A stretch of 60,709 nucleotides of DNA, counting the filler. It is 4 parts of 4 records of this genome, joined end to end, with 100 filler letters (N's around TTAATTAATTAA, not from the genome) between each part and the next. Parts side by side here need not be neighbours in the genome. Positions count along the whole stretch, not along the records: positions 10,141 to 27,512 come from SRR20825019_1780; 3 more parts are not named here. One strand, written 5' to 3'. Position numbers and translations under genes: made by a program. Of this stretch, positions 10,041-27,612 are shown one piece after another. Within the stretch, counting starts at the first letter, position 1; each line of letters starts with the position of its first letter. Below the pieces are notes generated by a model. The model was given only the letters and a program-made list of their open reading frames with translations. It was not told where the DNA came from and ran no database searches.

Positions 10041-10140
10041 NNNNNNNNNNNNNNNNNNNNNNNNNNNNNNNNNNNNNNNNNNNNTTAATTAATTAANNNN
10101 NNNNNNNNNNNNNNNNNNNNNNNNNNNNNNNNNNNNNNNN
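10041..10140. other. Artificial contig-joining spacer
   Basis: N44-TTAATTAATTAA-N44 with stops in all six frames. Confidence 0.99.
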
Positions 10141-10459
10141 GATGTTCCAGATGGGCGGCATCGGCCCGATCTTCGGTCAGGTGCACCATTTCAAGCGTGC
10201 CGCGAAAGAGAAAGTGCCCTATGGCATCGAGCGTTATGGCAAGGAATGCCTGCGTCTCTATGGCGTGCTGAACAGCCGCCTCGAAGGCCGCGATTATCTC
10301 GCCAATGACGAGGTCTCCATCGCCGATTTCGCGACCCTGCCCTGGGTCTTCCGGCATGAGTGGCAGGAAGTGGACCTGGCCCAGTTTCCGAACGTGAAGC
10401 GCTGGTTCGACGCCATGATGGCGCGTCCGGCTCTGAGCAAGGGCATGGAACTGCCCTGA
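10141..10459 (+). CDS. Glutathione S-transferase (YfcG/YghU-like), 5'-truncated
   Basis: FQMGGIGPIFGQ, YGIERY, RLYGVL, SIADFATLPW, FPNVKRW and RPA..KG. Confidence 0.9.
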
Positions 10460-10597
10460 TCCGGCATCGGGTTTAAGGTTAAAAGCGGGGTCGTGGCGGT
10501 TTCGCCCGGCCCCGCTTGCGCTTATAGTGCCGTCGCTCGCGCATTCCCCGGGAGGGAGGCGGACGACTTCAAAAGATCAAACCAGGAGGAGAAGGCC

Positions 10598-11233
10598 ATG
10601 ACCATCCGGCTTGGCGATATAGCGCCTGATTTCACGCAGGATTCCACGGACGGCAAGATCAACTTCTATGATTATGCGGGCGATAACTGGGTCATCCTGT
10701 TCTCGCATCCGAAAGATTTCACCCCGGTCTGCACCACCGAGCTCGGCTACATGGCCGGTCTGAAGCCGGAATTCGACAAGCGCGGAGTCAAGGTGCTCGG
10801 CCTTTCCGTCGACGGTCTCGGCGACCACGAAAAATGGGCCGACGACATCAAGCAGACCCAGGGCAACAACCTGAACTTCCCGCTGGTGGCGGACCACGAC
10901 AAGACGGTGGCCGGTCTCTACGATATGATCCACCCGAACGCGAACGACACGCTGACGGTGCGCTCTGTCTTTGTCATCGACGGCAACAAGAAAGTCCGTC
11001 TGATCCTGACCTATCCGGCCAGCACCGGACGGAATTTCGACGAGATCCTGCGCGTGGTCGATTCCCTGCAGCTGACCGACAAGCACAAGGTGGCCACGCC
11101 GGTGAACTGGACCAGCGGCGACAAGTGCATCATCGTCCCGGCTCTGTCGAACGACGATGCGAAGAAGCTGTTTCCGGGCGGCTGGGACGAGCAGCGCCCC
11201 TATCTCCGGGTGGTCGATCAGCCGGGCGCGTAA
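10598..11233 (+). CDS. 1-Cys peroxiredoxin (Prx6 family)
   Basis: FSHPKDFTPVCTTE, TVRSVFVID, YPASTGRNFDE, VATPVNW; AGGAG RBS. Confidence 0.96.
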   Translation: MTIRLGDIAPDFTQDSTDGKINFYDYAGDNWVILFSHPKDFTPVCTTELGYMAGLKPEFDKRGVKVLGLSVDGLGDHEKWADDIKQTQGNNLNFPLVADHDKTVAGLYDMIHPNANDTLTVRSVFVIDGNKKVRLILTYPASTGRNFDEILRVVDSLQLTDKHKVATPVNWTSGDKCIIVPALSNDDAKKLFPGGWDEQRPYLRVVDQPGA

Positions 11234-11250
11234 GGGCTGACCATTTTGGG

Positions 11251-11278
11251 AAAAGGGCCGGTTCGACCGGCCCTTTTT
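11251..11278 (+). terminator. Rho-independent terminator, possibly bidirectional
   Basis: AAAAGGGCCGGT-TCG-ACCGGCCCTTTTT just after the peroxiredoxin stop. Confidence 0.85.
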
Positions 11279-11304
11279 GATTTCTGCACATCATTTTCTC
11301 TGAT

Positions 11305-11386
11305 CGTCATCCCTGCGAAAGCAGGGACCCAGGGATGACGAATACAACTCTATGATCCCTGGGTTCCCGCCTTCGCGGGAATGACG
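11305..11386. repeat. Inverted dimer of CGTC-type REP palindromes
   Basis: CGTCATCCCTGCGAAAGCAGGGACCCAG ... CTGGGTTCCCGCCTTCGCGGGAATGACG. Confidence 0.8.
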
Positions 11387-11510
11387 GTGAGGGGGCGTGC
11401 CGCAAGAACGCTTTAGCGCCATCAAAACGGAATAACACCTTAATAATGTAGCAAAAATCCGGCACTCTTCCGGCAAGTCGACAAGATCGATCGTAGCAGG
11501 AGGGCGGGAC

Positions 11511-12452
11511 ATGAGCGGAAACGATACGGGCACAGAAACGGCAACGGATTTCTCCGTCGGCTTCATCGGCCTCGGCGGCATGGGCCGCGGGGTTGTGAAG
11601 AACATGCTGGTTGGAGGCGCCACGGTCGCGGTCCATGATCTCGACTCGGAAGCGGTGGCGCTGGCCGTCTCGCAGGGTGCCCGCGCCGAGTCGGATCTGG
11701 CGGCAATGGCGGCCGGGGCAGATGTGCTCGGCATCTGCATCACCACGGCGGAGGCGGTCCAGAAACTCGCGCTCGGGCCGGACGGTCTGCTCTCCCATAT
11801 GCGCGAGGGGGCGGTCTTCCTCGATCACACCACGGTCTCGCCCGATCATGTGGACAGGATGCGTGAGGCCTGCGCCGCGCTCAACATCGCCTATTGCGAG
11901 GCGCCGATGACACGGACGCCGGTGCACGCGGACCGGGGCGAGGTTAATATCCTGTTCGGCGGCTCCGGGGATCTGCTGGAGCGGTTGCGCCCGCTGTTCG
12001 AGACCTATGCCGAGAACATCTTCCATGTCGGCCCCGCCGGTCATGCGGTCCGGCTGAAGCTGATCCACAATTACATCGCCTTCGCCAATGTCGCCTCCTG
12101 GTGCGAGGGCTTCGCGCTCGCCGCCCGGGAAGGGCTCGACATGGACAAGGTGATCGGCATCATCTCCGCTGCGGGCGGCAAGTCCGGCATGATGGATCTC
12201 TACGGTGAAGCCACCCTGAAGCGCGACTTCACCCCGCTGATGTCGCTTGCTAACGCGCAGAAGGATGTCCGCTATTACGCGCAGTGGCTGGAACAGGCCG
12301 GGCTGCCGGGTTTCATGGCCGAGTCCGTGCACCAGACCTACGCACTGGCCTCCATCATGGGGTTCGAGGATGAAAGCTGTACGGCGGTGATCAAGGCCTA
12401 TGAAAAGCTGACCGGTGTGGAAGCGCGTTTGCCGGAGGCTTCGGAGGTATAA
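11511..12452 (+). CDS. NAD(P)-dependent beta-hydroxyacid dehydrogenase family protein
   Basis: GFIGLGGMG, DHTT, EAPMT, catalytic LKLIHN and KDV motifs; AGGAGG RBS. Confidence 0.9.
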   Translation: MSGNDTGTETATDFSVGFIGLGGMGRGVVKNMLVGGATVAVHDLDSEAVALAVSQGARAESDLAAMAAGADVLGICITTAEAVQKLALGPDGLLSHMREGAVFLDHTTVSPDHVDRMREACAALNIAYCEAPMTRTPVHADRGEVNILFGGSGDLLERLRPLFETYAENIFHVGPAGHAVRLKLIHNYIAFANVASWCEGFALAAREGLDMDKVIGIISAAGGKSGMMDLYGEATLKRDFTPLMSLANAQKDVRYYAQWLEQAGLPGFMAESVHQTYALASIMGFEDESCTAVIKAYEKLTGVEARLPEASEV

Positions 12453-12485
12453 AGTTACCTTGTCCCAAATTGAGGTGTGTCACTG

Positions 12486-13016
12486 ATGGCGTACGCGATT
12501 TCTCTTTCTGCGAACAACAGAAGCGCGGATCGTGTGCGTCAGCTCTGGCATGATTTTGGTTTGCTGGAGGATGAGCCGACAATGTCACGGCTCAATTACC
12601 CGCCCCATATCACTTTCGCCGTATGGGATGACATAGAAGCCAATGAGGTCGGAGATATCGTCCAGTCTGTATTCCGGGAACGGGCCTGTGTGCATCTGAC
12701 TTTTGATCGTCTCTGTTATTTTGATGCTGACCCTCTCGTGGTCTGGGCCGCTCCATCTTGCTCTAATGATTTAGTTGCGCTTCATGGAGAGATTCACCGG
12801 CATTTGGAGCCTGAATCCTGTCGCGAGCATTATAGGCCCGGAAATTGGGTGCCGCATTGTACGCTTGCTATGGAAGTTGCTGCGGCCAATCGGCAGCAGG
12901 CGATCGAATGGACATCGCACCAGCTTGTGCCAATTGAAGTTGTCTTTGATGCTGCCGATCTGGTTTCATTTCCACCTGTGGATCTGAAAGTTCGCCTGAG
13001 ACTCAAGAAGTTTTAG
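12486..13016 (+). CDS. 2H phosphoesterase (2'-5' RNA ligase family)
   Basis: Two HxT motifs (PPHITF, WVPHCTL). Confidence 0.85.
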   Translation: MAYAISLSANNRSADRVRQLWHDFGLLEDEPTMSRLNYPPHITFAVWDDIEANEVGDIVQSVFRERACVHLTFDRLCYFDADPLVVWAAPSCSNDLVALHGEIHRHLEPESCREHYRPGNWVPHCTLAMEVAAANRQQAIEWTSHQLVPIEVVFDAADLVSFPPVDLKVRLRLKKF

Positions 13017-13044
13017 ATCGATATCCCGTCTGGCCATCCATCTT

Positions 13045-13131
13045 CGTCATTCCGGCTGGAGAGCCGGGACCCAGATGATCGTAGAACATCGCCCTTCGTT
13101 CCCTGGGAACCACATCAAGTGCGGGATGACG
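13045..13131. repeat. Second inverted CGTC-type REP dimer
   Basis: CGTCATTCCGGCTGGAGAGCCGGGACCCAG ... CTGGGAACCACATCAAGTGCGGGATGACG, with the same termini as 11305-11386. Confidence 0.75.
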
Positions 13132-13249
13132 GTTTTGGGGTAGGGAAGAGCTCGAAAACATCACGCTCACGATAGTTTTTGCTGCGCTCGGAAGCACAAC
13201 GGACTAGGCCTTCACCGGTAGGGTTTGTGCGTCTTCCAATGAGGCGGAA

Positions 13250-14248
13250 ATGATCGGGCAGGATAAGGCTGGCAGCAACGGCGCGCAGGCGTTCTGGTCC
13301 CTCGGCGATGGCCGGGGCGAGATCCGGGAGGTCCGGCTTGCCGCGCCAAGGCCGGACGAGGTGCTGGCGGAAACCGTCTATTCCGCCGTCAGCAAGGGCA
13401 CGGAGAGCCTTGTTTTCCGGGGCGGTGTACCTGCCTCCGAATGGGAACGCATGGCGTGTCCATTTCAGGAAGGGCCGTTCCCGGGGGCGGTGAAATATGG
13501 CTATGCCGCTGTTGCGCGTGTGGTCAGTGGCTCCGCGCTGAAGCCCGGCTCCCTGATCTTCGCGCTTTACCCGCATCAGACCCGTTTCGTGCTGCCCGCC
13601 GCCGCCGCTATTCCGATCCCGGAAGGCGTGACGCCGGAGCGGGCCGTGCTGGCTGCGAATATGGAAACGGCGTTGAATGCGGTCTGGGATGCGGAAGCTG
13701 CGCGCACAGGCCAGATCGCCGTCGTCGGCGGCGGCATGGTCGGTTTGCTGACCGGATATCTTGCCCGCCGGTTCTGGGCGGCGGAAGTCTGGGTGTTCGA
13801 TCCGGTGGAAAGCCGGAAAACGGTGGCCGGGCAGCTTGGCCTCCATTATGCGGAAGCTGGCGCACACCCGGAAAAATTCAGCCTGATCTTTCATGCCAGC
13901 GCGACCGAGGCCGGTTTGCGCACGGCGCTCGACCTCGCGGCCTTCGAAGCGACCATTCTTGAGCTGAGCTGGTTCGGGGACCGCGAAGTTTCCCTGCCAT
14001 TGGGCGGCGCCTTCCATTCCCAGCGTCTGACAATCCAGGCCTCCCAGGTTGGTGCCGTGGCACCATCCCGGCGGGACCTGGCGCGGCACGCCGAGCGTCT
14101 GGCCGAGGCGCTGACCCTGCTGGACGATCCCGCGCTCGACATTCTCATCACCGACGAGAGCCCCTTCGAGGCCCTGCCGGAAGTTCTGGCGGGGCTTGTC
14201 GCCGGAGCGCCGGAAACCCTTTGCCATCGCATCCGTTATTCTGACTGA
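13250..14248 (+). CDS. MDR (zinc-binding alcohol dehydrogenase-like) oxidoreductase
   Basis: [43 protein letters not shown] and [10 protein letters not shown]. Confidence 0.88.
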
Positions 14249-14261
14249 CCGGAGTATTTCA

Positions 14262-14660
14262 ATGTACGCACTCACCGTCCGCGACCATGTGATGATCGCG
14301 CACAGCTTCAATTCCGAAACCTTCGGCCCGGCCCAGCGGCTGCACGGCGCGACATACGTGATCGACGTGGAATTCCGCCGTGCGGAGCTGGATGCGGATA
14401 ATCTGGTGGTCGATATCGGCGCCGCGTCGGAGCGGCTGAAGGCGGTGCTGGAGCCGCTCGGCTACCGCAATCTGGACGATCTGCCGGAATTCGCCGGAGA
14501 GAATACGACGACCGAGTTCCTGGCCCGGCATATCTTTGACCGGATGGCGGGCGCGATTGCGGCCGGAGAGCTTGGCGAAGGGGCGAAGGAACTCGATTCC
14601 ATGAAGGTGACGCTGCACGAATCCCACATCGCCTGGGCTTCCTATGAGGGGATGCTGTGA
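14262..14660 (+). CDS. 6-pyruvoyl/6-carboxy-tetrahydropterin synthase homolog (COG0720, PTPS-IV type)
   Basis: [35 protein letters not shown] and LHESH; no CxxxHGH motif of true QueD. Confidence 0.88.
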
Positions 14661-15736
14661 GCGCCGATCCATTCAAAGGCTCGGAGCCGCCCGTCCATTT
14701 CATCGTTCCGGGTCCCCTCGATACCCTGACGGGCGGGTTCATCTATGACCGGCATATGGTCGACGGTCTCCGTGCCTCCGGCAGGTTGGGCGGCGTGCAT
14801 GAGATTGAAGGCGATTTCCCCAGGGCCCGGCCCTACGACATCGCCGCCGGTGCGGCGGTGCTGGCCGGGTTGCCGGACCGCGCGCGCTGCGTGATCGACG
14901 GTCTGGCGCTGACGGCGCTGGGCCAGGCTGTCGCCCAGCATGCGCCCCGGCTCGACGTGATCGCCATGATCCATCACCCGCTGGCGGATGAGACCGGACT
15001 CTCCGAGCGGGAGACGGAGGCCTTCTTCCAGGCGGAGAAAGCCGTGCTGAAAGAGGTCGCGCGGATCGTCGTCTCCAGCCGCCGCACGGCGGAGAGGCTG
15101 GCTGATTTCGATGTACATCCCTCAACCGTTCATGTGGTCGAGCCTGGTATTGCCGATTGGGTGTCGTCAGTCGAAAGGCGCCCGGCGGAAGGGCCGCTGC
15201 GCATTCTCTCGGTCGGCACGCTGACACGGCGCAAGGGGCATGAGAGCGCGGTGCGGGCGCTGGCCAATTGCCGCGATCTCGACTGGCAGCTCGATATTGT
15301 CGGCGCGGCCCACGATGCAGCCCATGCGGCTGAGCTGAGCAGCCTGATCGGAGAGCTAGGTCTGGCGGGGCGGGTAACGTTGCATGGCGAGGTTTCCGAT
15401 GAAGAATTGGCCCGGATGCATGGCGCGGCAGGGCTGTTTCTGTCGGCGACACACCATGAAGGGTTCGGCATGGCCCTTGCCGATGCTGTCGCCGCCGGGC
15501 TGCCGGTTCTGACGACCCATGAGGGTGCGGTTGCGGATGCTGTTCGCGAAGCGGCGCAACTGGTGCCCGCGGGAGACGTGCCCGCGTTGACGGAAGCCTT
15601 GCGCGATGTGCTTGGCAAGGGTGAGCTGCGGGTGCAGATGGCCGGACGCTCTGTCCCGGCGGCGGGCAAGCTGTCTGACTGGGGCAGGGCCAAGGCGGCA
15701 TTCCAGAGGGCAGTGGACGGGGTGATCCTGCAGTGA
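14657..15736 (+). CDS. Glycosyltransferase family 4 (GT-B)
   Basis: TGGFIYD, IDGLA, HHPLA, RKG and [20 protein letters not shown] overlap. Confidence 0.9.
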
Positions 15737-16542
15737 GCGGATTTTCCGACGCCTGGCTCAGTGCCCGCGCGGCCTGGGATGCCCCGGCCCGGAACAGGAC
15801 CGTACAGGATGCGCTGACCGACTGGGCCGGCAAACGCGCATCGACCGGAGAACGCCTCCGGATCGTCGATCTCGGGGCCGGGAACGGGAACAACCAGCGT
15901 CACCTCGCGCCGCTTCTGCCGGTGCCGGTGGACTGGATGCTGGTCGATAATGATCAGGCATTGCTAACCACTGCAGAGCGGACTGCCAGTCTGAAACCAG
16001 AGGATACGCTGGTTCGGGAGATAACGGATCTGGCGCATGCCGATCTGGCAAAATTGATCGCCGGGGCTGATCTCGTTACCGCCTCCGCGCTGTTCGATCT
16101 GGTCTCGCAGGACTGGCTCGACACTTTGCTCGATGTTCTGACAGACGAGGGGGCGGCCCTGCTTGCCGTTCTGACCTATGACGGGCGGATAGAGGCGCGT
16201 GCCGACCAGGAGGCATTGGCGGCCGTCAGGGAGCTGGTCAACCGGCATCAGCGGAAGGACAAAGGGTTCGGCCCGGCACTGGGCCCTGACGCGTCTGGCG
16301 CACTGTCCGCCGGTCTTGCCGCGCGAGCGTATGATGTGCAGGACGGGGAGAGCGACTGGATCGTCGGAATGGGCGATCCGGGCGCGTCCGAGCTTGTCGG
16401 CGGCTGGGTGGAGGCTGCGTCCGAGATGGCGCCGGAGCGGAGCGGTAATTTCGAGGCCTGGGCCGAAGCCCTATACGCGGCGCCGGAAGCCACGATCCGC
16501 GTTGGCCATCGGGATCACTTTGCCGTGCCCCGGATCAGTTGA
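15733..16542 (+). CDS. Class I SAM-dependent methyltransferase
   Basis: WLSARAAWDAPARN, IVDLGAGNG, LVDND, TASALFDLVS, LTYDG, NRHQ and ALGPDA. Confidence 0.85.
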   Translation: MSGFSDAWLSARAAWDAPARNRTVQDALTDWAGKRASTGERLRIVDLGAGNGNNQRHLAPLLPVPVDWMLVDNDQALLTTAERTASLKPEDTLVREITDLAHADLAKLIAGADLVTASALFDLVSQDWLDTLLDVLTDEGAALLAVLTYDGRIEARADQEALAAVRELVNRHQRKDKGFGPALGPDASGALSAGLAARAYDVQDGESDWIVGMGDPGASELVGGWVEAASEMAPERSGNFEAWAEALYAAPEATIRVGHRDHFAVPRIS

Positions 16543-17287
16543 GCCGGCAATCGAACAGGGTGTCCTGTCCGAGTTTGTAGGTGCGGGCCTCGAAACGCCG
16601 TGCGTCGGCGAGTGTTTCGATCTCCGGCAGCTCAAGCCCCGGGCGGCCGGAGCCGATCAGCATGGGGGCAACGGCGATATGCAGCCGGTCGATCAGCCCC
16701 GCGCTCAGGAAGCGTGAAATCGTATTCCCGCCGCCTTCGATAAGGATGGTGCGCAGGTCCCTGTTGCGGAGCTGTTCCAGAAGCCTGCCCGGCGAGACCT
16801 GTTCGGCATCGTCTGCCGGAGCAATGGCGAAGCAGTGTGGCGGCAGGCCGGAAATATCGCGGCTGGTTACCAGCAAGGTTTCGGCGTCGGGTTCCGACAG
16901 CAGGGCATGCTCTGCCGGGACACGCCTTTTCGGATCGATCACCACACGGACCGGGTTCGGCCCGGAGACGCGCCGTGTCGTCAGCCGGGGATTGTCCAGC
17001 ACAGCCGTGTTGGCTCCGACGACCACGGCATCGGCGATGGCCCGGAGCCGATGCAGATGGTCGAGGCTTTCTGCACCGTTGATATAGTGGGAATGCCCGC
17101 TGGCCGTGGCGATCCGTCCATCAAGACTTTGCCCGATCTGGGCGATGACGATCGGCCGTTCCATGCAATCCCGGGCAAGATCGCGGTAGAGCTGCCAGGG
17201 GATGTCGGCTGTGTCCCGGGACGGTGCGGCCTCTTTCTCGCAGTCTTTCCCGAGTGTGGCCAGAATATCGGGCCATTCATCATTCAT
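16535..17287 (-). CDS. RibD C-terminal reductase domain protein (no deaminase domain)
   Basis: GQSLDGRIAT, HRLRA..DAVVVGANT...DNPRLTTR, LIEGG and APMLIGSG. Confidence 0.9.
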   Translation of the reverse strand: MNDEWPDILATLGKDCEKEAAPSRDTADIPWQLYRDLARDCMERPIVIAQIGQSLDGRIATASGHSHYINGAESLDHLHRLRAIADAVVVGANTAVLDNPRLTTRRVSGPNPVRVVIDPKRRVPAEHALLSEPDAETLLVTSRDISGLPPHCFAIAPADDAEQVSPGRLLEQLRNRDLRTILIEGGGNTISRFLSAGLIDRLHIAVAPMLIGSGRPGLELPEIETLADARRFEARTYKLGQDTLFDCRLN

Positions 17288-18089
17288 GGCCGTGCCCGAC
17301 TATTTCACCGTCTTTGACCGGCCAGCCGACAACATCGGAGATCAGCTCCGCAAACTGGTCTGCATAGGCGGCGAGCAGGGTTGCGCCCTGTTCCGCCGTT
17401 GCCAGACTGGCATTGCCGGTCGCTCCTTCCGGGTTCAGATCCTCCGCATTCCAGGCATAGCCCCCGGCCCCGGAAAGCCCCAGGCGCTTTGCCGTAAGGG
17501 CACGGTCTGCCGCCTTGTTCGGAAAGTTCGCGATCTTGTCCTTGCGTACCAGGTCCGGGTGAAGCGTCAGCATCAGGGCGGTTTCGATCTGGCCGCCATG
17601 CAGGCCGAAGGACCGTTCGTCCTCGGCAACCAGGTCCGGCGGCAGGTCGAAGCGGAAGCTGTTCGCCCGCACGGCCAGCATGCCTGCCTCGCTGCGCAGC
17701 CGCTGCACCGCCAGATCGACGATCTGGGGCTGGCCGCCATGGCTGTTCAGGATGATCATTTTGCGCAGCCCGGCCGCAGCGACGGACAGGCCGATCTCGG
17801 TCCAGGAAGCGAGCAGGGTTTCGGCTTCATGCGAGAGCGTACCGGCGAAATTCATATGTTCGGGGCTGAGGCCAACGGACTGGGAGGGGAGCCGGATCAG
17901 GTCGATATCCGGCGCAACCCGTTCGGCCGCGGCCGCGAGAATGCCTTCGCTGATCAGGATGTCGGTCGCCAGTGGCAGGTGCGGGCCGTGCTGCTCGACG
18001 GCACCAACGGGAAGCACCGCAATGGCGCGCGCCGGATCGAGCGCTGCGACATCAACTGTAGTCAGATGACCCCACGTCCTGATTGGCAT
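17280..18089 (-). CDS. Creatininase/FAPy-deformylase family amidohydrolase
   Basis: LPVGAVEQHGPHLPLATD, SPEH..FAGT, NSHGG and HGGQIETA. Confidence 0.92.
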   Translation of the reverse strand: MPIRTWGHLTTVDVAALDPARAIAVLPVGAVEQHGPHLPLATDILISEGILAAAAERVAPDIDLIRLPSQSVGLSPEHMNFAGTLSHEAETLLASWTEIGLSVAAAGLRKMIILNSHGGQPQIVDLAVQRLRSEAGMLAVRANSFRFDLPPDLVAEDERSFGLHGGQIETALMLTLHPDLVRKDKIANFPNKAADRALTAKRLGLSGAGGYAWNAEDLNPEGATGNASLATAEQGATLLAAYADQFAELISDVVGWPVKDGEIVGHGHE

Positions 18090-18131
18090 CCTTTTGAATT
18101 TCCGTTGCTTTTGCTGCTGTGGTCGGTCGAA

Positions 18132-18159
18132 GACATACTGCCGGCATCGAGGCTGTCAA
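18132..18159 (-). promoter_or_regulatory. Candidate sigma70 promoter for the creatininase-ribD pair
   Basis: TTGACA-N16-TATGTC on the minus strand about 45 nt upstream of the start, followed upstream by an AT-rich tract. Confidence 0.3.
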
Positions 18160-18500
18160 GTCGATGCACGGCGGCGTGATAAAATGGTGGTCATAAATAT
18201 GACGCTGAATAGTCATATTTTTAAAGCAAAACATTCAAATAAAATTTCGATCTCGTGAGTTTTTGTTGATTGGCGGTAGTAAATTATAAATAATTATCAG
18301 TTATATTGTTTATGTCCGTGGATGGATGTTTGATTCATGGCGTTTTATTGGCATGTCTTGGCACGGCAGGCGTTGGAACAATGTTAAGCTCACCTTTCCT
18401 TGCGGGAGCATATCTCGGCGTGCGGCGCCGCTGACGGACTCGAAGTCCGGCAGCGCACTGTCATTTTCCGGGATTCCCTGGCGTCGTCGCAGACTGGGCG

Positions 18501-19154
18501 TTAGCCGCAGGCTGGCGGCTCTAGCGTCTGGTCATCCGCGTCATGGATCCGGATAAGGATCCGGCGCGGCAGACTACTTTGCTGCCGGCTGCGCAACCGT
18601 TCGGCACGGCTGCGGCCGAGAGGCTTTATCTCCAGTGGGTCGCCCCGGTCGGCATCTTGTGTCCGGATGCCGAGGCCGAGGTCGTCAAACCCGATCAGAT
18701 GCAGTGACCAGTTTTCCTTCCGCCAGGTGACCCGGGCCGCCGCAGGTGTGGCTACGGGCGGCAGACAGATCTCGTCAGGCTCCCCCAGATCATTGGTCAG
18801 GTATCGCTGGATATTTCCGGCGCTTTTTCTTGTCGCGGCCGCGTGCCGCCGTTCGAGCAGGATCTGTCGCAGCGTGTCCGCAGAGTCGAACTGCAGGTAA
18901 ACGCGGAAGCTGGACCCGAAGGCCTCCATTTCCGGAATGACCAGCCGTCCTTTCAGATGGCCGAAATTGACGCCGGGTGTCAGGCGCTTTGCCTGTGGCA
19001 GGGCATTTGAGGCCGCGCGCGCACTCATGCCGAATTCAAGATGGGAGAATGGCGGCGGCGGGGTTGCATCCTGCTGCGTTGTGGCGACGGCAGGGCCCGT
19101 CGATGCCATCAGCAGATAGATCAGTATCAGTATAGCGGCGGGAGCCGTTCGCAT
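18501..19154 (-). CDS. Exported hypothetical protein
   Basis: 217-aa ORF with a signal-peptide-like N-terminus (PAVA), starting 2 nt after the hydroxylase stop. Confidence 0.65.
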   Translation of the reverse strand: MRTAPAAILILIYLLMASTGPAVATTQQDATPPPPFSHLEFGMSARAASNALPQAKRLTPGVNFGHLKGRLVIPEMEAFGSSFRVYLQFDSADTLRQILLERRHAAATRKSAGNIQRYLTNDLGEPDEICLPPVATPAAARVTWRKENWSLHLIGFDDLGLGIRTQDADRGDPLEIKPLGRSRAERLRSRQQSSLPRRILIRIHDADDQTLEPPACG

Positions 19155-19156
19155 TC

Positions 19157-20278
19157 TTATCTGAGGCCGGCGCGCATCAGGCCGCGTTTCAATCCGCTGA
19201 ACCGGCCTATCGCGGCAAGCCCGGCCTGGCGGATCAGTTTCTGCGGCCCGGACGGGCGGGTGGCGACGCCAGCCAGGGCGCCTATGGCGGACAGCCGCCC
19301 GGCGACGTCGGGCTGACGGCGGGGGGCATAGGAGCCGAGCACCTGCTGGCTGCCGATATCCTCGCCTTTGGTGGCGGCTTCTGTCAGCAGCGACCGCAAG
19401 GTCATGATGTCCCGCACGGACATGTTCCAGCCCTGGGCGGCAATGGGAGGGGCGATATGCGCGCTCTCGCCGATGACGACGACCCGGTCCCGCGCGGGTT
19501 GCGGCGTGAAGCCGAGTGCCAGGGGGAAGACGGCTTTCGGACCGGTGAAGGCTATACGTCCGAAAGTGTCCTGACGGCGTGTCAGCTTGCGTTCGATGGT
19601 TTCGTCCGGATGCGCGGAGAGGGCGGCGATCTCATCCGGGGAAGCAATGGTGATCAGGGAGGCGTCATGCTCTGCGACGGGGATCAGGGTCAGCGTGCCG
19701 GTATCGTCATAACGCTCGATACAGAGCCGTTCGTGCGGGTGTTCAAGCCGGACCGGCACGCACAGCGCGCTCCGGCCGAGCGGTTTTTTGCGCATTCTGA
19801 TACCAGCGGCTTCCCGGGCCAGGGATTGCAGGCCGTCGGCGGCGATAACCAGACGGGCTTCTATCGTCTTGCCGTCATCCGTTGCGATCCGGACGCTGTC
19901 CGCTGAGGGCTGAACGCCGGTTACCGTGGCTTTGTGCTGCGGGACATCGGGCATGACATCCATCAGATCCCGAATGAACAGGTTCTGGGCCAGGAAACCC
20001 TCGCCAGCATCTTCCGCAGTGAACAGTTCCGAGACAATTCCGAACGGGCCGGTTGTCTCAATCCGAAGATCCAGAAGCGGGGTTGCCCTCGTGCGGACAT
20101 CGATGCCGAGCATATCCAGTGATTCAACGCTCGATGGCATCAGGGCTGTGGTGCGCGGGTCGGCGGACCGGTTGGCATCGGGTCCGATCATCACCACACC
20201 CTCCCCGCAATCGCGGAATGCGTGGGTGGCGAGGCGGGCGGTCGGACCATTTCCTATGACGGCGATATCGACGAGCAT
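19157..20278 (-). CDS. FAD-dependent hydroxylase, UbiH/UbiL/COQ6 family
   Basis: IAVIGNGP, DPRTTAL, LVIAADG..S.AR...GI and IGESAHIAPPIAAQGWNMSVRD. Confidence 0.85.
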   Translation of the reverse strand: MLVDIAVIGNGPTARLATHAFRDCGEGVVMIGPDANRSADPRTTALMPSSVESLDMLGIDVRTRATPLLDLRIETTGPFGIVSELFTAEDAGEGFLAQNLFIRDLMDVMPDVPQHKATVTGVQPSADSVRIATDDGKTIEARLVIAADGLQSLAREAAGIRMRKKPLGRSALCVPVRLEHPHERLCIERYDDTGTLTLIPVAEHDASLITIASPDEIAALSAHPDETIERKLTRRQDTFGRIAFTGPKAVFPLALGFTPQPARDRVVVIGESAHIAPPIAAQGWNMSVRDIMTLRSLLTEAATKGEDIGSQQVLGSYAPRRQPDVAGRLSAIGALAGVATRPSGPQKLIRQAGLAAIGRFSGLKRGLMRAGLR

Positions 20279-20742
20279 GACGGTTCCTTAATGGCGCTCT
20301 TCAGTGTCGGCCGGGTGTTGGTAATCTGCAAGTTTTCACCGTGCGGCTTATATGGACCCGCAATGGTTGATGGAGGCGGTGGTTTTTTATGTCGTATTTT
20401 ATCTGTGTGAAGCTCAGAAACCAGCTCTGAGAGCCGCTTGGCGGCAAAATACAATATAGCGCATATTAATAAAAATTCACCTATGACGACCACGTAAAAA
20501 TTGAATGTTACGGCGCAATATTGTATGGTTGCGCATCTGAACGCCAATTGCCCAAATCAATAAAGGCAGCGTCGCTAAGCTTCGGCAAGGCAATGCGCAT
20601 AATGGCGGCGCCTGATCGGGCGCAGCAGAACGCTTTTAGACGCTGCGATTCAGCTTGAGAGGGGCCATCCCCGATCCGCATAGTCGCTATAGCTATACAG
20701 ACTTTTGATTCAGGGACGTCTAAACGGCATGGGGGTGAGGAT

Positions 20743-21285
20743 ATGAAGAACGCGGCTAATCGTCTGATTGACGATCTGTCTGAGGACTCAACGTTGGCGA
20801 CGGATAAGGATGTCGCGGACCGTGGCAAGTCATCTACCTCGAACAATCCGGTCGATGTGTTTGTCGGTGCTCGTCTGCGCCGCCGCCGGAAGGAAATGGG
20901 GATGACCCAGCGCATTGTCGCGCAGAAGATCGGCGTCACCTCCCAGCAATACATGAAATATGAACGCGGCGATAACCGGATCAGTGCATCGCGTCTGTTC
21001 GATGTGGCCTCGGTCCTGAATACGCCGGTTTCTTTCTTCTTCGACGAGATGGACGAGCAGACGATAGCTCAGTCCCCGGCGCGGTTGCTGGGTGGCGAAG
21101 GTATGGCGCCGCCAATGGTCAGCTCTCATGATGTCGAGATTGACTCGCCGCTGGCACGCCGTCAGGCCAGTGAGCTTGTCCGGCTCTGGTGTGACCTGCC
21201 GGAACATGCGCGGACCCGCATCGTCGACCTGGTGCGCACCATGTCGGAGCTGGCTGATCCAGGCCAGGATAACGACCGAAGCTAA
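20743..21285 (+). CDS. XRE-family HTH transcriptional regulator
   Basis: PVDVFVGARLRRRR...GMTQ...IGVTSQQYMKYERGDNRISASRL...PVSFFF. Confidence 0.9.
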   Translation: MKNAANRLIDDLSEDSTLATDKDVADRGKSSTSNNPVDVFVGARLRRRRKEMGMTQRIVAQKIGVTSQQYMKYERGDNRISASRLFDVASVLNTPVSFFFDEMDEQTIAQSPARLLGGEGMAPPMVSSHDVEIDSPLARRQASELVRLWCDLPEHARTRIVDLVRTMSELADPGQDNDRS

Positions 21286-21391
21286 CCACTGGCTTCAGGC
21301 CAAAACCCGGCACTTTGAATAACAAACACTTTGAGTAAATTGCCGCTTTGGCGGCAATTTCTGTTTCCGGGGGATGTACCCGCTTGCCGGC

Positions 21392-21883
21392 TCAGCCCGT
21401 CACGATTGTGTAGGGCTGGGCAAGGTGATGCTCTTCCAGATTATCGCCGGGACCAACCCGGTCGACGATCAGGAAATCTGCGGGGCCTGCCAATGGCGCC
21501 AGGACACCATGCCAGCAATTCATCCTGTACTGGATACCCTGATTGCCGTTCGTCAGGAACGCACGCGGCGTGCCGGGTGTGCCGTCCTCATCTTTGGCGA
21601 CGATAATCAGAAACTGTGTTCCCGCCATCGGTACGAAAGCTTGGCTGCCATGCGGGTGCCGCTCCATCATACCAAGGGAAAGCGGCAGGGTGACGGCCTC
21701 GCTGCGCCCGACGCTCAGGCTTACGGCGCCGTCGGCATCCGTCTCCGGACGGGCGAGATCGTGATGGCGGCCGCAGAGACCGGCGTTGATCATGAAGTCT
21801 GGCGTACCCGTCGCTTCCAGCACGGCGCCGAACGGTGCGAAAGCCTCTGCCGTCAACGGCTGCGCCTTGATAGTTCGGCTCAT
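21392..21883 (-). CDS. allA: Ureidoglycolate lyase
   Basis: PLTAEAFAPFG, MERHPHGSQAF, WH and FLIVDR.GPGDNL. Confidence 0.93.
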   Translation of the reverse strand: MSRTIKAQPLTAEAFAPFGAVLEATGTPDFMINAGLCGRHHDLARPETDADGAVSLSVGRSEAVTLPLSLGMMERHPHGSQAFVPMAGTQFLIIVAKDEDGTPGTPRAFLTNGNQGIQYRMNCWHGVLAPLAGPADFLIVDRVGPGDNLEEHHLAQPYTIVTG

Positions 21884-22737
21884 CGCCCGAACCCGCCGAC
21901 ACCGGTCAGTTTCGGATGCCGGTGCATGTCCTTGTAGAGCAGATAGCGGAACGGCTCCGGCCCGGCCGCGTAGCAGGCCTGCGGGCAGAAGGCACGCAGC
22001 CACATATAGTCACCCGCCTCGACCTCCACCCAGTCCTGGTTCAGCTTGTAGACGCCCTTGCCCTGCAGCACGTAGAGGCCGTGCTCCATGACGTGGGTTT
22101 CCTCGAACGGAATGGTGCCGCCCGGCTGGAACGTGACGACTGTGATGTGCATGTCATGCCGCAGGTCTTCTGGATCGACGAACCGGCTCGTCGCCCAGCG
22201 GCCTTCGGTATCGGGCATGGCATTGGGGGGGGTGTCCCGGTCATTGGCGAAAAGCGGCTCAGGAGTATCGAGCCCGTCCACGGCCTCGTACATCTTCCTG
22301 ACCCAGTGAAACTTTGCCGTCTCGCTTCCCCGGTTGCGCAGGGTCCAGCCCGATGACGGCGGCAGGAAGCCGAAACCGCCCGGCTCAAGCACATGCTCCG
22401 CCCCGCCGACGGTAACGGTGACCGAGCCGGAGACAACGAACAGCGCGCCTTCGGCGCCTGCTTCCGGTTCCGGTCTGTCCGAGCCGCCGCCGGGGCCGAC
22501 TTCCATCACATAGTGCGAGAAAGTTTCGCTGAAACCGGAAAGCGGCCGGGCGATGATCCAGCCCCGGGTCTTCTCCCAGAACGGAAACAGGCTGGCGACA
22601 ATATCGGTCATCACGCCCTTCGGGATCACTGCATAGGCGTCGGTGAAGACCGCTCGGCCGGTCATCAGCTCGCGCTGGCCCGGCAGACCGCCTTCGATGG
22701 CGAAGTAGGACCCTGCGTCCTGTTTTTTGGTGCTCAT
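21880..22737 (-). CDS. allE: (S)-ureidoglycine aminohydrolase, bicupin
   Basis: ETHVMEHGLYVLQG, WLRAFCPQAC and YLLYKD..RH; ATGA overlaps on both sides. Confidence 0.9.
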   Translation of the reverse strand: MSTKKQDAGSYFAIEGGLPGQRELMTGRAVFTDAYAVIPKGVMTDIVASLFPFWEKTRGWIIARPLSGFSETFSHYVMEVGPGGGSDRPEPEAGAEGALFVVSGSVTVTVGGAEHVLEPGGFGFLPPSSGWTLRNRGSETAKFHWVRKMYEAVDGLDTPEPLFANDRDTPPNAMPDTEGRWATSRFVDPEDLRHDMHITVVTFQPGGTIPFEETHVMEHGLYVLQGKGVYKLNQDWVEVEAGDYMWLRAFCPQACYAAGPEPFRYLLYKDMHRHPKLTGVGGFGR

Positions 22738-24149
22738 GGCAGCAGATCCTTCAATCTCAACTCGGTGATGCGTTCGACCTGACGGCACGCTTCCGCTATT
22801 TCCGTCTCCCGGTCATTGCCGATGCGGCGTTGAAAGGCAGTGAGGATGCCCGCCTTGTCATGATCGCGGACGGCGATGATGAACGGGAAGCCGTGCTTGG
22901 CCACATATTCCGCGTTCAGCGCCTCGAAGCTGGTCCGTTCCGCGTCGGTCAGGGCGTCCAGTCCGGCGCTGGCCTGCTCTGATGTGGAATTCTCGGTCAG
23001 GCGTTTGGCTTGCGCCAGTTTTCCGGCGAGATCCGGATGGGCGTTAAGGACGCCCAGTCGTTCCGCTTCGCTGGCCGAGCGGAAGATCCGGGTGAGAGCG
23101 TTGTGCAGGCCGGTTGCCGTGTCGTGCGCCGGGCCGCGTTCCAGATCGAAGGCCTGCTCGGCAATCCAGGGAGAGTTCTCAAAGATGCCGCCGAAGCACT
23201 CGACAAACCGTTCGCGGGACATGGCGCCGGGCCGCTCCCAGCGCTTGTGCGGGAAATTGGCTTTCCAGTGCTCTGCGATCTCGATCCGGCGGGCAAACCA
23301 GACATCGCTATGGGATTGCGCGTATTCGATGAAGCGCTTCAGTCCTGCCGCCCGTCCGGGCCGGCCGGTGAGGCGGCAATGCAGGCCGACGGACATCATG
23401 GCCGGGCGACCGGCTGCGCCTTCCGCGTAGAGACCGTCGAAACTGTCTTTCAGATATTGGAAGAACTGCTCGCCGGTATTGAAGCCCTGCGGTGTTGCGA
23501 ACCGCATGTCGTTGGCGTCGAGCGTATAGGGAATGATCAGCTGATCGTGCTCGCCCGCTTCCATCCAGTAGGGCAGGTCGTCGGCATAGCTGTCCGAGAT
23601 GTAGTCGAAATCGCCCCGCGCGGCGACGAGCCCGACCGTGTTCATGGAGCAGCGGCCGGTATACCAGCCGCGCGGCGCCTCTCCGGTGACTTCGGCATGC
23701 AGGCGGATCGCTTCGACGATCTGGGCCAGCTCCTCCGCCTCGGTCATGTCCTTGTGCTCGATCCATTTGAGCCCGTGCGAGGCAATCTCCCAGTCGGCCT
23801 CCTGCATCGCCTTCACCTGCGACGGACTACGTGCGAGTGCCGTGGCAACGCCATAGACAGTGAGCGGGATGCCGGCCTCGGTGAACAGCCGGTGCAGACG
23901 CCAGAACCCGGCCCGGGCGCCATATTCGTAGATCGATTCCATATTCCAGTGCCGCTGGCCTGGCCAGGCGGCGGCACCGACGATCTCCGAGAGGAAAGCT
24001 TCGGAGGCGTCGTCCCCGTGCAGCAGGTTGTTTTCGCCGCCTTCCTCGTAATTCAGGACGAACTGCACCGCGACCTTCGCACCGCCCGGCCAGGCGGCAT
24101 TCGGAACGGTCTGGCCATAGCCTTCAAGATCGCGCGGATAGGTCCCCAT
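22734..24149 (-). CDS. puuE: Allantoinase PuuE fused to OHCU decarboxylase (UraD)
   Basis: YPRDL.GYG, QFVLNYEEGGEN, YEYGARAGFWR and GLHCRL.GRPGR; C-terminal FENSPW, AHPDLAG, S.SEQASAGL and GFPFIIAV. Confidence 0.95.
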   Translation of the reverse strand: MGTYPRDLEGYGQTVPNAAWPGGAKVAVQFVLNYEEGGENNLLHGDDASEAFLSEIVGAAAWPGQRHWNMESIYEYGARAGFWRLHRLFTEAGIPLTVYGVATALARSPSQVKAMQEADWEIASHGLKWIEHKDMTEAEELAQIVEAIRLHAEVTGEAPRGWYTGRCSMNTVGLVAARGDFDYISDSYADDLPYWMEAGEHDQLIIPYTLDANDMRFATPQGFNTGEQFFQYLKDSFDGLYAEGAAGRPAMMSVGLHCRLTGRPGRAAGLKRFIEYAQSHSDVWFARRIEIAEHWKANFPHKRWERPGAMSRERFVECFGGIFENSPWIAEQAFDLERGPAHDTATGLHNALTRIFRSASEAERLGVLNAHPDLAGKLAQAKRLTENSTSEQASAGLDALTDAERTSFEALNAEYVAKHGFPFIIAVRDHDKAGILTAFQRRIGNDRETEIAEACRQVERITELRLKDLLP

Positions 24150-24205
24150 ACTTCTTCCTCTCATGCCTGCGGGCGCCATCGTTCCAGAGAACCGCCCGGC
24201 GGACA

Positions 24206-24222
24206 TTCAACAAAATTTTGAA
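24206..24222. promoter_or_regulatory. Inverted repeat TTCAA-N7-TTGAA in the divergent puuE/uraH promoter region
   Basis: TTCAACAAAATTTTGAA in an AT-rich intergenic region. Confidence 0.4.
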
Positions 24223-24342
24223 AGAGTCTTATGACAAGCCCCCTTTCATATACAATTCCTAGACAATCTAATTCAGTCAAAGAACGCGGTCGTGCAAAGA
24301 CTGCAACCGGGATCAACCCGGCAAAACAGGGGCAGACTTGCT

Positions 24343-24702
24343 ATGGCGTCAGGACGATTGACGACTCATGTGCTTGATCAGGCGGCAGGGAAACCGGCGG
24401 CGGGGCTGAAGATCGAGCTTTTCCGGCTGACCGGTGGCGTGCCGCAACCTGTCTCGCATGCGGTGACGAACGCGGACGGGCGCACGGACGGCCCGATGGC
24501 GCAAGGCGAAAGCTTTACGCCCGGCGTCTATGAGTTGCTTTTCCATGCTGGCGATTATCTGAAATCGGCGGGCCATGTCGGAGATGGCACCCTGTTCCTC
24601 GACACCATTCCGCTGCGCTTCGGTATCGAGGATGCGGACCAGCATTTTCATGTGCCTTTGCTGCTGTCTCCCTACGGTTACGCGACTTACAGGGGGAGCT
24701 GA
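24343..24702 (+). CDS. uraH: 5-hydroxyisourate hydrolase
   Basis: LTTHVLD, TNADGR, HVPLLLSP and C-terminal YRGS. Confidence 0.97.
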   Translation: MASGRLTTHVLDQAAGKPAAGLKIELFRLTGGVPQPVSHAVTNADGRTDGPMAQGESFTPGVYELLFHAGDYLKSAGHVGDGTLFLDTIPLRFGIEDADQHFHVPLLLSPYGYATYRGS

Positions 24703-24705
24703 CCG

Positions 24706-26157: not shown

Positions 26158-27512
26158 TGGATGGCGGACGGCAAGACGCAGGCACGAGAGTGCGGGGCGG
26201 CGTCCACAGCGCTGAGCGGCATGACTCGGCTCACAAGCATGTCACCGGCTCGGCGGACTATATCGACGATATGGTGGAACCGGTCGGCACCCTGCACGCT
26301 TATCTGGGTCTCTCGGAAGCCGCCCATGCGGAAATTGTGTCGATCGACCTGACTGCCGTGCGGTCGGCACCGGGCGTTGTGGATGTGCTGACGGCGGCGG
26401 ATATTCCGGCTGTGAACGATGTCAGTCCAGTCCATGCTCATGACGACCCGGTCTTTGCCGAGGACAAGGTGATGTTCTGGGGGCAGCCGGTTTTTGCCGT
26501 GATCGCGGAGAGTCGGAAGCAGGCCCGCCGCGCGGCGACACTGGCCCGGATCGACTATCGCCCGCTCGATGCCGCTATCGATATCGACGCGGCCATGGCT
26601 GCGGGTTCCGAACTCGTCACCAAACCGCTGAAACTGGAACGCGGCTCCGTCGACGCGGCGCTGGCCGCCGCGCCGCACCGGATTACCGGCAGCATGGAAA
26701 TTGGTGGTCAGGATCATTTCTATCTCGAAGGCCATATTGCTTTCGCCATTCCGGGCGAGGATGAGACCGTCACCATCCATTCCTCGACCCAGCATCCGAG
26801 TGAGGGGCAAAACCTCGTCTCCGAGGTGCTGGGTGTGGCCGCGAATGCGGTCTCCGTGCAGGTAAGGCGGATGGGCGGCGGGTTCGGGGGCAAGGAATCC
26901 CAACCGGCCCTGTTCGCCGCCGTTGCCGCTCTGGCGGCCAAGCGGCTGAACCGTCCGGTGAAGATTCGTCCGGACCGGGACGATGACATGATCGCCACCG
27001 GCAAGCGGCATGATTTCAAGGTCGCCTACGATGTCGGCTTCGACGATGAGGGGCGCATTCTCGGCGTGGAGGGTACATACGCCGCACGCTGCGGTTTTTC
27101 CGCCGATCTTTCCGGCCCGGTAACGGATCGGGCGCTGTTCCACGCCGACAATGCCTATTACTTCCCGCATGTTCGGCTGAAGTCCCTGCCGCTCCGGACC
27201 AACACTGTTTCCAACACGGCCTTTCGCGGCTTTGGCGGGCCTCAGGGCGTGCTCGGGGCGGAACGGATCGTCGAGGAAATCGCCTACGCGCTGGGCAAGG
27301 ACCCGCTGGAAATCCGGAAGGCGAATTTCTACGGCCCGCCCGGCCGGGATGTGACCCCCTATCATCAGACGGTGACGGACTCGATCCTTGACCGGCTGGT
27401 GGGTGAACTTGAAGAGAGTTCCGACTATCAGGCGCGACGCTCGGCCATTCTCGATTTCAACCGGCAGGGCGGGGTTATCCGCAAGGGCATCGCCCTGACG
27501 CCGGTCAAGTTC
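26154..27512 (+). CDS. xdhB: Xanthine dehydrogenase molybdopterin subunit, 3'-truncated
   Basis: HDSAHKHVTG, QDHFYLEG, STQHP, RMGGGFGGKESQ and AFRGFGGPQG. Confidence 0.96.
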
Positions 27513-27612
27513 NNNNNNNNNNNNNNNNNNNNNNNNNNNNNNNNNNNNNNNNNNNNTTAATTAATTAANNNNNNNNNNNNNNNNNNNNNNNNNNNNNNNN
27601 NNNNNNNNNNNN
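27513..27612. other. Artificial contig-joining spacer
   Basis: N44-TTAATTAATTAA-N44. Confidence 0.99.

Follow-up and report, generated by a model that had tools for sequence, protein, structure and literature searches.

What do bacteria make with the gene clusters that surround a PTPS-IV protein? One such cluster is the SCO6650–SCO6655 locus of Streptomyces coelicolor, reportedly known since 2006–2008. A six-gene relative of it occupies positions 13250–18089 of the window analysed here, a 60,709-nucleotide (nt) stretch of DNA in which four contigs are joined end to end. We read this locus as a compact copy, free of membrane genes, of the PTPS-IV (SCO6650-type) biosynthetic cluster, consisting of two modules and directed at a soluble, glycosylated and methylated pyrimidine- or pterin-like product. 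To this reading, in which we infer the substrates, the order of the steps and the product itself, we give a probability of roughly 0.5. What the sequences themselves establish are the family memberships, the residues lost from PTPS-IV, the conserved order of the genes, the division into two modules and, in this lineage, the missing membrane module and variant RibA. A literature search, with subscription journals mostly outside its reach, found no published product of a PTPS-IV cluster, in agreement with an earlier note on the window that had called the end product unestablished.

Six genes around an altered PTPS-IV protein

The locus lies wholly inside the second contig of the window (SRR20825019_1780, positions 10141–27512), which comes from a marine Nisaea bacterium and is 75–92% identical to four genomes of that genus (G001–G004); the likeness ends exactly at 27512. 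The earlier note had described six tightly packed genes, and calling of open reading frames (ORFs) recovered all of them on the strands it gave. They form two converging operons (Table 1): the plus-strand operon runs from the dehydrogenase gene through those for PTPS-IV and a family 4 glycosyltransferase (GT4) to a methyltransferase gene, and the minus-strand operon from a creatininase-family hydrolase gene to a RibD_C reductase gene. Between the dehydrogenase and PTPS genes lie 13 nt; starts and stops overlap by 4 nt at 14657–14660 (PTPS-IV/GT4) and 15733–15736 (GT4/methyltransferase); the creatininase and RibD_C genes overlap by 8 nt at 17280–17287; and 8 nt are shared where the two operons meet tail to tail, at 16535–16542. 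Family assignments were made with Pfam and NCBIfam at their curated cut-offs.

The COG0720 protein, which the earlier note had placed in the PTPS-IV subfamily, belongs there. It matches SCO6650 (PDB 3d7j) over its full length (E 9e-52), scores 87.2 bits with PF01242 (cut-off 22.4), and carries the motif FGPAQRLHG, of which F21, G22, P23, A24 and Q25 are invariant in 25 homologues; FGPAQ is given as the PTPS-IV signature in the accessible text of PMC5445326. Alignment of a 25-homologue profile with solved structures of PTPS and QueD (including 2g64, 1b66 and 4ntk) revealed three replacements: (i) the column of the catalytic Cys holds Pro or Ala, (ii) the zinc-site HGH reads HGA, the third zinc His being replaced, and (iii) the Asp-His of LDHKNLD reads Gly/Asn-Tyr. 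In PTPS and QueD the Cys and the Asp-His pair serve catalysis and the His residues bind zinc. All 25 sequences keep the first His, the His of HG and the C-terminal Glu. PTPS-IV identity is 65–73% across Alphaproteobacteria, Actinomycetota, Acidobacteriota, Gemmatimonadota and one haloarchaeon; identity of the GT4 and the methyltransferase is just 28–48% outside Nisaea.

These replacements bear on the classical roles of COG0720 proteins—QueD, a substitute for FolB (PTPS-III), or a step in F420 synthesis—any of which we regard as highly improbable for the Nisaea protein. Several points can be cited for such a role: plasmid relatives are annotated '6-carboxytetrahydropterin synthase', the protein is the sole PF01242 match in each of the four Nisaea genomes, QueC is present in three of the four, and PMC5041015, in its accessible part, states an F420 step for PTPS-IV as unpublished work. 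Yet the QueD equivalog model TIGR03367 gives 44.1 bits against a cut-off of 89.25, the CxxxHGH motif is absent, and the Cys, the zinc His and the Asp-His pair are all replaced. Because no QueE-type gene was found in any of the four genomes (the model was positive in nine control genomes), a de novo queuosine route in need of QueD is not expected. FolB occurs twice and FolE once in all four genomes (FolE2 in one of them), and the F420 gene cofH was found in none of the four, which speaks against an F420 link at least in this lineage. As a separate observation, G001–G003 carry QueC (e.g. L097:1489–2217) but neither QueD nor a QueE-type gene, which suggests salvage of 7-carboxy-7-deazaguanine or a non-orthologous route; G004 is without QueC yet keeps the PTPS-IV cluster.

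The remaining plus-strand proteins were placed by sequence and by structural models. The dehydrogenase has no Pfam match at E≤0.001, and its best NCBIfam match, BchC, reaches 50.9 bits against a cut-off of 291 (threonine dehydrogenase is also weak). Its AlphaFold2 (AF2) model, with a predicted local distance difference test (pLDDT) score of 88, has the fold of the medium-chain dehydrogenases/reductases (MDR) and, in Foldseek, template-modelling (TM) scores of 0.70–0.77 to sorbitol, xylitol, idonate and arabinitol dehydrogenases and to TarJ. The superposition on TarJ (6xh9, 6xhk; TM 0.70–0.76), which acts with TarI in ribitol-phosphate activation for teichoic acid, is a class-level likeness, since other polyol dehydrogenases score equally. 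The GT4 protein scores 92.2 bits with PF00534 (cut-off 26.4) and reaches no curated equivalog (57.3 bits against 462.5 for that of MshA). Its best solved relatives are MshA itself (7qsg, E 2.5e-14) and the sucrose-phosphate-synthase-like 6kih (E 1e-13), whose kin use small polyol- or sugar-phosphate acceptors and so fit a glycosylated, phosphorylated polyol chain. Since the GT4 is nearest to enzymes of these types and the dehydrogenase model resembles polyol dehydrogenases and TarJ, we favour small polyol-phosphate acceptors. Pfam matches of the methyltransferase are weak and under gathering scores, and comparison of its sequence with solved structures gave nothing useful; the motif DLGxGxG is invariant in 25 homologues (D46, G50, G52), and the model (pLDDT 95.6) has the class I S-adenosylmethionine (SAM) fold, for which Foldseek returned generic small-molecule methyltransferases only (TM up to 0.6, E down to 1e-12).

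Table 1. Genes of the PTPS-IV locus and a candidate promoter, in window positions (aa, amino acids)
Feature	Position	Strand	Basis and remarks
MDR-fold dehydrogenase, NAD(P)-type, 332 aa	13250..14248	+	First gene of plus-strand operon; AF2 model and Foldseek
PTPS-IV (SCO6650-type T-fold, COG0720), 132 aa	14262..14660	+	PF01242 E 1.1e-24; conserved start at 14262
GT4 glycosyltransferase, 359 aa	14657..15736	+	PF00534 E 4e-26
Class I SAM-dependent methyltransferase, 269 aa	15733..16542	+	Last gene of plus-strand operon; fold from model
RibD_C-only pyrimidine reductase, 250 aa	16535..17287	-	PF01872 E 1e-42; without deaminase domain
Creatininase-family metal amidohydrolase, candidate formamidase, 269 aa	17280..18089	-	First gene of minus-strand operon; PF02633 E 7e-67
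Tentative sigma-70-like promoter, candidate only	18283..18312	-	Upstream of creatininase gene; 10/12 consensus matches

A recurrent core and a separable pair

Do these six genes belong together? A one-genome-per-species scan with the PTPS gene of the window found a relative of the cluster in at least 512 species genomes, spanning Proteobacteria, Actinomycetota, Acidobacteriota, Gemmatimonadota, Myxococcota and haloarchaea. From these at least 512 loci the best 80 were kept, which are hence the most Nisaea-like and not an unbiased census. With neighbours scored by tblastn (E≤1e-5 over at least half of the query), the dehydrogenase is the tightest partner, adjoining PTPS-IV in 78 of the 80 loci; next come the GT4 (69 loci), the methyltransferase (64), RibD_C (53) and the creatininase (23). 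Such a grouping far exceeds what chance would give. The genes thus behave as the unit that the earlier note had supposed, both in the best 80 loci and in the 20 loci of the host's order described below, and a neighbourhood survey did find the cluster recurrent; what that note had missed is that the cluster is common rather than rare, and that elsewhere it usually comes with membrane genes. PTPS-IV/SCO6650 clusters are among the more widespread bacterial clusters without a known product, and the Nisaea version, with its six genes, is the smallest coherent form seen, free of membrane genes and of a dedicated cyclohydrolase. It is carried by the cultured strains N. denitrificans DSM 18348 and N. 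nitritireducens DSM 19540, which make its function directly testable.

Members of the plus-strand operon also occur fused to one another. Matching PTPS-IV at E≤1e-10 are 326 proteins of at least 232 aa, and among the 17 of these that were scanned for domains we found fusions of ADH_zinc_N with PTPS, of PTPS with GT4, and of PTPS with GT4 and a weak methyltransferase match. Some may be artefacts of metagenome gene calling; being numerous and consistent, the fusions argue that the plus-strand genes work together. Other architectures seen were (i) three metagenomic proteins of ~1250 aa (P0001, P0002 and P0029) with three tandem PTPS-IV-like domains, ~500 unassigned residues and a dehydrogenase domain, (ii) the metagenomic P0023, in which a cytidylyltransferase-type domain is fused to PTPS-IV, a theme in common with TarJ/TarI, and (iii) P0119, a 1155-aa metagenomic protein joining PTPS, GT4 and LPG_synthase_TM.

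To describe what else accompanies the cluster, ORFs within ~9 kb of PTPS-IV were clustered in the 80 loci and the window (81 in all), and representatives were scanned against Pfam. The recurrent genes that the window lacks encode a CDP-alcohol phosphatidyltransferase (44/81), a 586-aa membrane protein with a weak sulfatase match (37/81), the flippase-like LPG_synthase_TM (34/81), GTP cyclohydrolase II (24/81) and, less often, an FkbM methyltransferase (11/81) and a cytochrome b561 (9/81); no conserved transporter or regulator gene accompanies the cluster. In 50 loci the sequence reaches 8 kb or more to either side, and 38 of these hold at least one of the three membrane genes; among the 12 that hold none, five are from Nisaea, the window included. 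In the window, tblastn found no match to the CDP-alcohol phosphatidyltransferase, LPG_synthase_TM or sulfatase-like genes, and no PF00925 domain was found. Seven ORF clusters (c16, c21, c22, c24, c26, c30 and c33) were discarded as shadow ORFs: they have no Pfam match, are rich in Arg, Pro and Ala, and overlap real genes on the other strand. Shadow ORFs of the ADH gene fall in ORF clusters 2 and 4, which were left out of the Pfam scan.

Membrane genes in 38 of 50 fully covered loci raise a lipid or envelope function for the cluster in other lineages. For Nisaea the corresponding proposal is that the product ends as a head group on a membrane lipid or envelope polymer, by way of unlinked, non-orthologous membrane enzymes; the fusion of PTPS, GT4 and LPG_synthase_TM in P0119 fits it, as do the LPG_synthase_TM paralogues that lie elsewhere in the Nisaea genomes. 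We judge it unlikely. Those paralogues are only ~30% identical and stand beside heptosyltransferase or DegT aminotransferase genes, in contexts of lipopolysaccharide type; the sulfatase-like protein was found in none of the four Nisaea genomes, and the cluster-type CDP-alcohol transferase in none of them and in 2 of 63 genomes from the order of G001.

The order as a whole gives the same picture. PTPS-IV (E≤1e-30) is carried by 40 of the 63 genomes, those without it being mostly small, and ~20 kb around the gene were examined in 20 of the 40. The core—dehydrogenase, PTPS, GT4 and methyltransferase, in the same order—is present in all 20 loci, and none has, within 10 kb, cyclohydrolase II, the CDP-alcohol transferase, LPG_synthase_TM, the sulfatase-like protein, FkbM or cytochrome b561. 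The membrane-free form is the rule in the host's order, and for this reason we favour a soluble product in Nisaea.

The minus-strand genes follow a different distribution. A converging RibD_C gene is present in 13 of the 20 order loci and the creatininase gene in nine, always with RibD_C and down to 42% identity. Creatininase-family genes occur in 58 of the 63 order genomes, often two or more per genome; in each of the four Nisaea genomes the cluster creatininase is the sole family member. A tree was built from 51 such proteins, of which 33 are cluster-linked (all the loci in hand) and 18 are not, the latter from 20 regions picked among ~100 other matches in the order (two regions contributed none). 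One side of the tree (Shimodaira–Hasegawa-like approximate likelihood ratio test, SH-aLRT, 84) unites the 33 linked proteins, that of the window among them, with four unlinked ones, and all 37 come from genomes with PTPS-IV. Within the sample, then, this creatininase subfamily is confined to PTPS-IV genomes. The other 14 proteins form two long-branched paralogue clades of the same order, one of which includes three genomes without PTPS-IV that carry, in the sample, only that paralogue. Two of the four unlinked creatininase genes are directly followed by RibD_C, in genomes whose core lacks these neighbours. Since the two genes stay together even when parted from the core, they are a separable two-gene module.

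The two outlying creatininase clades (L132, L137, L139, L141–L143; and L124–L126, L129, L131, L133, L136, L138) have contexts of their own. The clade with the three PTPS-IV-free genomes lies among genes for RsmB, ribulose-phosphate 3-epimerase, a heparinase II/III-like protein, an MraY-type glycosyl transferase and an epimerase, even in small genomes without PTPS-IV; the second adjoins cytochrome b561.

The link to GTP and a proposed route

What would the pair and the core work on? The RibD_C protein exceeds the cut-off of TIGR00227 (153.3 against 150.15 bits; the domain spans residues 45–229 of 250), and among solved proteins it comes closest to 6p8c (E 9e-31) and 2azn (E 1e-25), as against ~2e-20 for bacterial RibD. 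Both of these archaeal enzymes reduce the non-deaminated (2,5-diamino) substrate, a kinship that lends support to the reduction step of the earlier note; the model for archaeal and fungal diaminopyrimidine reductases, TIGR01508, is not reached (110.2 against 186.45 bits). As a second, full-length RibD sits in the rib operon of each Nisaea genome, the cluster protein is an extra copy, a paralogue of RibD. The TIGR00227 match and the archaeal kinship, together with the cyclohydrolase II genes in 24 of the 81 loci and the invariant C-terminal Glu and His of HG in PTPS-IV, indicate that the cluster probably draws on GTP beside the riboflavin pathway. A product that is both soluble and GTP-derived is the most likely outcome. 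That PTPS-IV associates with cyclohydrolase II and RibD_C has been published before (PMC5445326).

The creatininase-family protein had been cast as a deformylase by the earlier note. Its EQHG.H...D, HGG and HGGxxE stretches align with the metal-binding motifs of Pseudomonas putida creatininase, and a bacterial precedent exists in BrbF of S. meliloti and Brucella, a creatininase-family formamidase that deformylates a formylaminopyrimidine nucleotide and is essential for riboflavin (accessible text of PMC9478397); the likeness of BrbF to the Nisaea protein is at family level. This much can be kept of the deformylase claim. Against it stands that the four Nisaea genomes hold no known source of a formylated substrate.

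That source was sought among the RibA proteins. The RibA of Nisaea was aligned with 24 cluster-linked RibAs from other species, and attention centred on a Tyr whose position, we presume, decides formate release. It is kept in Nisaea and in 14 of the 24; nine proteins from Pseudonocardiaceae and Actinomadura (L007, L012, L036, L037, L038, L058, L063, L065 and L078) have His instead, and one from Streptomyces pacificus (L055) has Met. A creatininase gene is present in the locus of all ten Tyr-replaced RibAs and of four of the 14 Tyr-bearing ones, a pattern that fits a creatininase removing the formyl group left by variant RibAs. Independently of this, HSAC or HSSC takes the place of the usual HSEC in 11 of the 14 Tyr-bearing proteins; we know of no description of either the His variant or the loss of the Glu. 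Each Nisaea genome has two PF00925 matches: a RibBA in the rib operon, the cyclohydrolase domain of which is without the Cys motif, and a canonical RibA of 407 aa with the HSEC...CDC motif and the Tyr. The second or variant ribA that the earlier note had envisaged for the host did not, in these four genomes, come to light.

The SCO6650–SCO6655 locus of S. coelicolor is like that of Nisaea in its PTPS-IV protein, its FGPAQ signature, its RibD_C neighbour and its orphan function, and SCO6655 we take to be a GTP cyclohydrolase II paralogue. Set against this and other actinobacterial loci, the Nisaea version is without cyclohydrolase II in the locus, a variant RibA, the CDP-alcohol transferase, LPG_synthase_TM and the sulfatase-like gene. 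A parallel for the pair is archaeal ArfB/ArfC, in which a creatininase-family hydrolase is likewise matched with a deaminase-less RibD_C reductase. Unlike the archaeal system, Nisaea has no ArfA (GTP cyclohydrolase III; 0/4 genomes) and does have a standard RibA and RibD; its hydrolase stays under the ArfB equivalog, and its pair, in contrast to Arf and BrbF, travels with PTPS-IV and not with rib genes.

Such precedents invite another explanation, in which pair and core are unrelated neighbours: the pair would be an early riboflavin branch of the BrbF type, and the core would use, for example, dihydroneopterin triphosphate, the product of FolE. That compound is of the usual ligand class of PTPS-fold proteins, and FolE is present in all four Nisaea genomes. 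The need for BrbF in its own hosts, the status of the cluster creatininase as sole family member in Nisaea, the two genomes in which the pair is unlinked and the seven of 20 order loci in which the core stands without it all suit this account. We nevertheless hold it to be doubtful. Nisaea, with a canonical RibA and a full-length RibD in its rib operon, does not need a second branch; the creatininase subfamily is found only in PTPS-IV genomes (37 of 37 rows); the three sampled order genomes that are free of PTPS-IV carry only a paralogue of another clade; and across phyla, 53 of 80 loci have RibD_C along with PTPS-IV. Either of the two outlying creatininase clades could be the counterpart of BrbF.

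For the two-module cluster that we prefer, the following route can be proposed. Firstly, the hydrolase and the RibD_C reductase of the minus strand would act in sequence on an early GTP-derived intermediate of the riboflavin pathway, for which the single housekeeping RibA would supply the starting compound in Nisaea. The hydrolase would strip off a formyl group or a comparable acyl group, and the reductase would convert the ribosyl to the ribityl form of 2,5-diamino-6-ribosylamino-4(3H)-pyrimidinone 5'-phosphate without deamination, as in archaea and fungi. Secondly, in the core, PTPS-IV might bind the 2-amino-4-oxopyrimidine part, the polyol-dehydrogenase-like MDR enzyme might act on the side chain by oxidation or reduction, a hydroxyl of the polyol-phosphate chain might receive a sugar from the MshA-like GT4, and the SAM enzyme might supply a methyl group. 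The cyclisation into a pterin or lumazine that the earlier note had included is pure conjecture, PTPS-IV being without the catalytic residues of PTPS and QueD.

Ring closure would return in a more specific and, in our view, improbable version of this scheme, in which the two modules together form a split pterin route that bypasses GTP cyclohydrolase I. RibA would open the guanine ring, the creatininase-family enzyme would clear any formylated intermediate, and RibD_C would reduce the ribosylamine; the TarJ-like dehydrogenase would then re-oxidise C2' of the ribityl phosphate chain, in net an Amadori step, and a re-tooled PTPS-IV would close the second ring to give a dihydropterin of neopterin-phosphate type, later glycosylated and methylated. 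If true, this would yield a soluble and novel pterin glycoside, common among bacteria of the sea and the soil, which other lineages would pass to membrane enzymes as a lipid head group.

Several points weigh against the cluster as we read it. The first concerns PTPS-IV itself which, because the known catalytic machinery of its family is missing, may on its sequence be a binding subunit and not an enzyme. RibD_C is missing nearby in 27 of the 80 loci and the creatininase in 57, so the core can exist without the pair close by. The ArfB equivalog NF033501 gives the creatininase-family protein only 20.7 bits against a cut-off of 180, and the models for MftE (112.8 bits) and creatininase (88.1) score higher, both below their own cut-offs. 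No RibA variant occurs in the four Nisaea genomes, where the only Cys-bearing RibA keeps the Tyr, and GTP cyclohydrolase III (PF05165) was found in none of the four; with no known source there for a formylated intermediate, the hydrolase may act on another amide. The folds of the methyltransferase and the dehydrogenase give no clue to substrates past their class. As to scope, membrane genes were sought with single-protein queries, and all statements on the host genome derive from four related Nisaea genomes.

Could the cluster break compounds down instead? A catabolic, salvage or repair route for pterins, flavins or polyols, for instance a dehydrogenase paired with a ring or amide hydrolase as IolM and IolN are in inositol breakdown, would agree with two weak matches: the dehydrogenase resembles IolM (E 2e-5) and the creatininase IolN (E 1e-12). 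Creatininase-family enzymes are, moreover, hydrolases. We consider this very unlikely: both matches are far under the curated cut-offs, a GT4 and a SAM methyltransferase fused to or, by gene layout, co-transcribed with PTPS-IV are typical of biosynthetic tailoring, and a conserved transporter or regulator is wanting.

Compounds of the proposed class, GTP-derived, sugar-bearing and branching off at the first step of riboflavin synthesis, have been described elsewhere. Cyanobacteria and Chlorobium make pteridine glycosides. The pyrimidine glycosides vicine and convicine of faba bean come from GTP, according to the accessible text of bioRxiv 10.1101/2020.02.26.966523. The likeness of both to the product proposed here is one of class only. 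PTPS-IV plays no part, to our knowledge, in the pathways to vicine, convicine or the pteridine glycosides.

Beyond earlier accounts, the present analysis adds (i) the six-gene, membrane-free form as the norm of a whole order, (ii) the two-module structure, (iii) a dedicated creatininase subfamily, and (iv) the finding that Nisaea has no known source for the substrate of the presumed formamidase. The two-module view splits the question posed at the outset in two: what the core makes, and why a formamidase-like enzyme and a reductase are paired without a known formylating cyclohydrolase. The latter puzzle parallels that of S. meliloti, where the enzyme that makes the BrbF substrate is unidentified according to the accessible text of PMC9478397.

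Surroundings of the locus

The genes that flank the cluster in the window recur, among the 80 loci, only in Nisaea. Directly upstream, at 12477–13016 on the plus strand, lies a gene for a 2H phosphoesterase (LigT-like, PF13563), which probably lies outside the cluster; at the same place, a homologue was seen in only one of the 80 loci (L001) and in none of the 20 order loci. Downstream, at 24706–27512 on the plus strand, are xanthine-dehydrogenase-type genes (2Fe-2S/FAD and molybdopterin subunits), truncated by the end of the contig and not conserved with the cluster outside Nisaea. Promoter-like sites in the region were not above shuffled sequence in a promoter and terminator scan (two found, 1.0 expected), and the site in Table 1 is to be read with this in mind. 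With Rfam, neither a riboswitch nor any other RNA family reached its gathering score in the window; the one match near the cluster is at chance level (E 0.2). Matches in a plasmid collection are partial and distant (e.g. plasmids of Methylosinus trichosporium OB3b, with 12% of the query covered), so the locus is not a segment of a known plasmid.

Sequences close to the cluster were also present in public runs. In two runs labelled metatranscriptomic, which are probably DNA, nearly the whole cluster is covered at 90–99% likeness, most pieces at 90–95%. Two contigs of run X20, at a depth of ~2, are identical to the window at 13217–13409 and 15246–15454 and start with loose letters that look like the tail of an adaptor for cDNA template switching. 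In that case these contigs would derive from RNA, and position 13217, 33 nt upstream of the dehydrogenase gene, could lie close to a 5' end, a start that contigs cannot prove.

The contigs of the window are separated by spacers at 10041–10140, 27513–27612 and 43249–43348, each a six-frame stop linker of twelve bases between two runs of 44 N. The last two pieces (27613–43248 and 43349–60709) have a lower G+C content (about 0.45–0.6) and encode eukaryote-type domains, including TLC, BBP-like KH, protein kinase, EF-hand and leucine-rich repeat (LRR) domains; by these differences, the source assembly mixes bacterial with eukaryote-like DNA.

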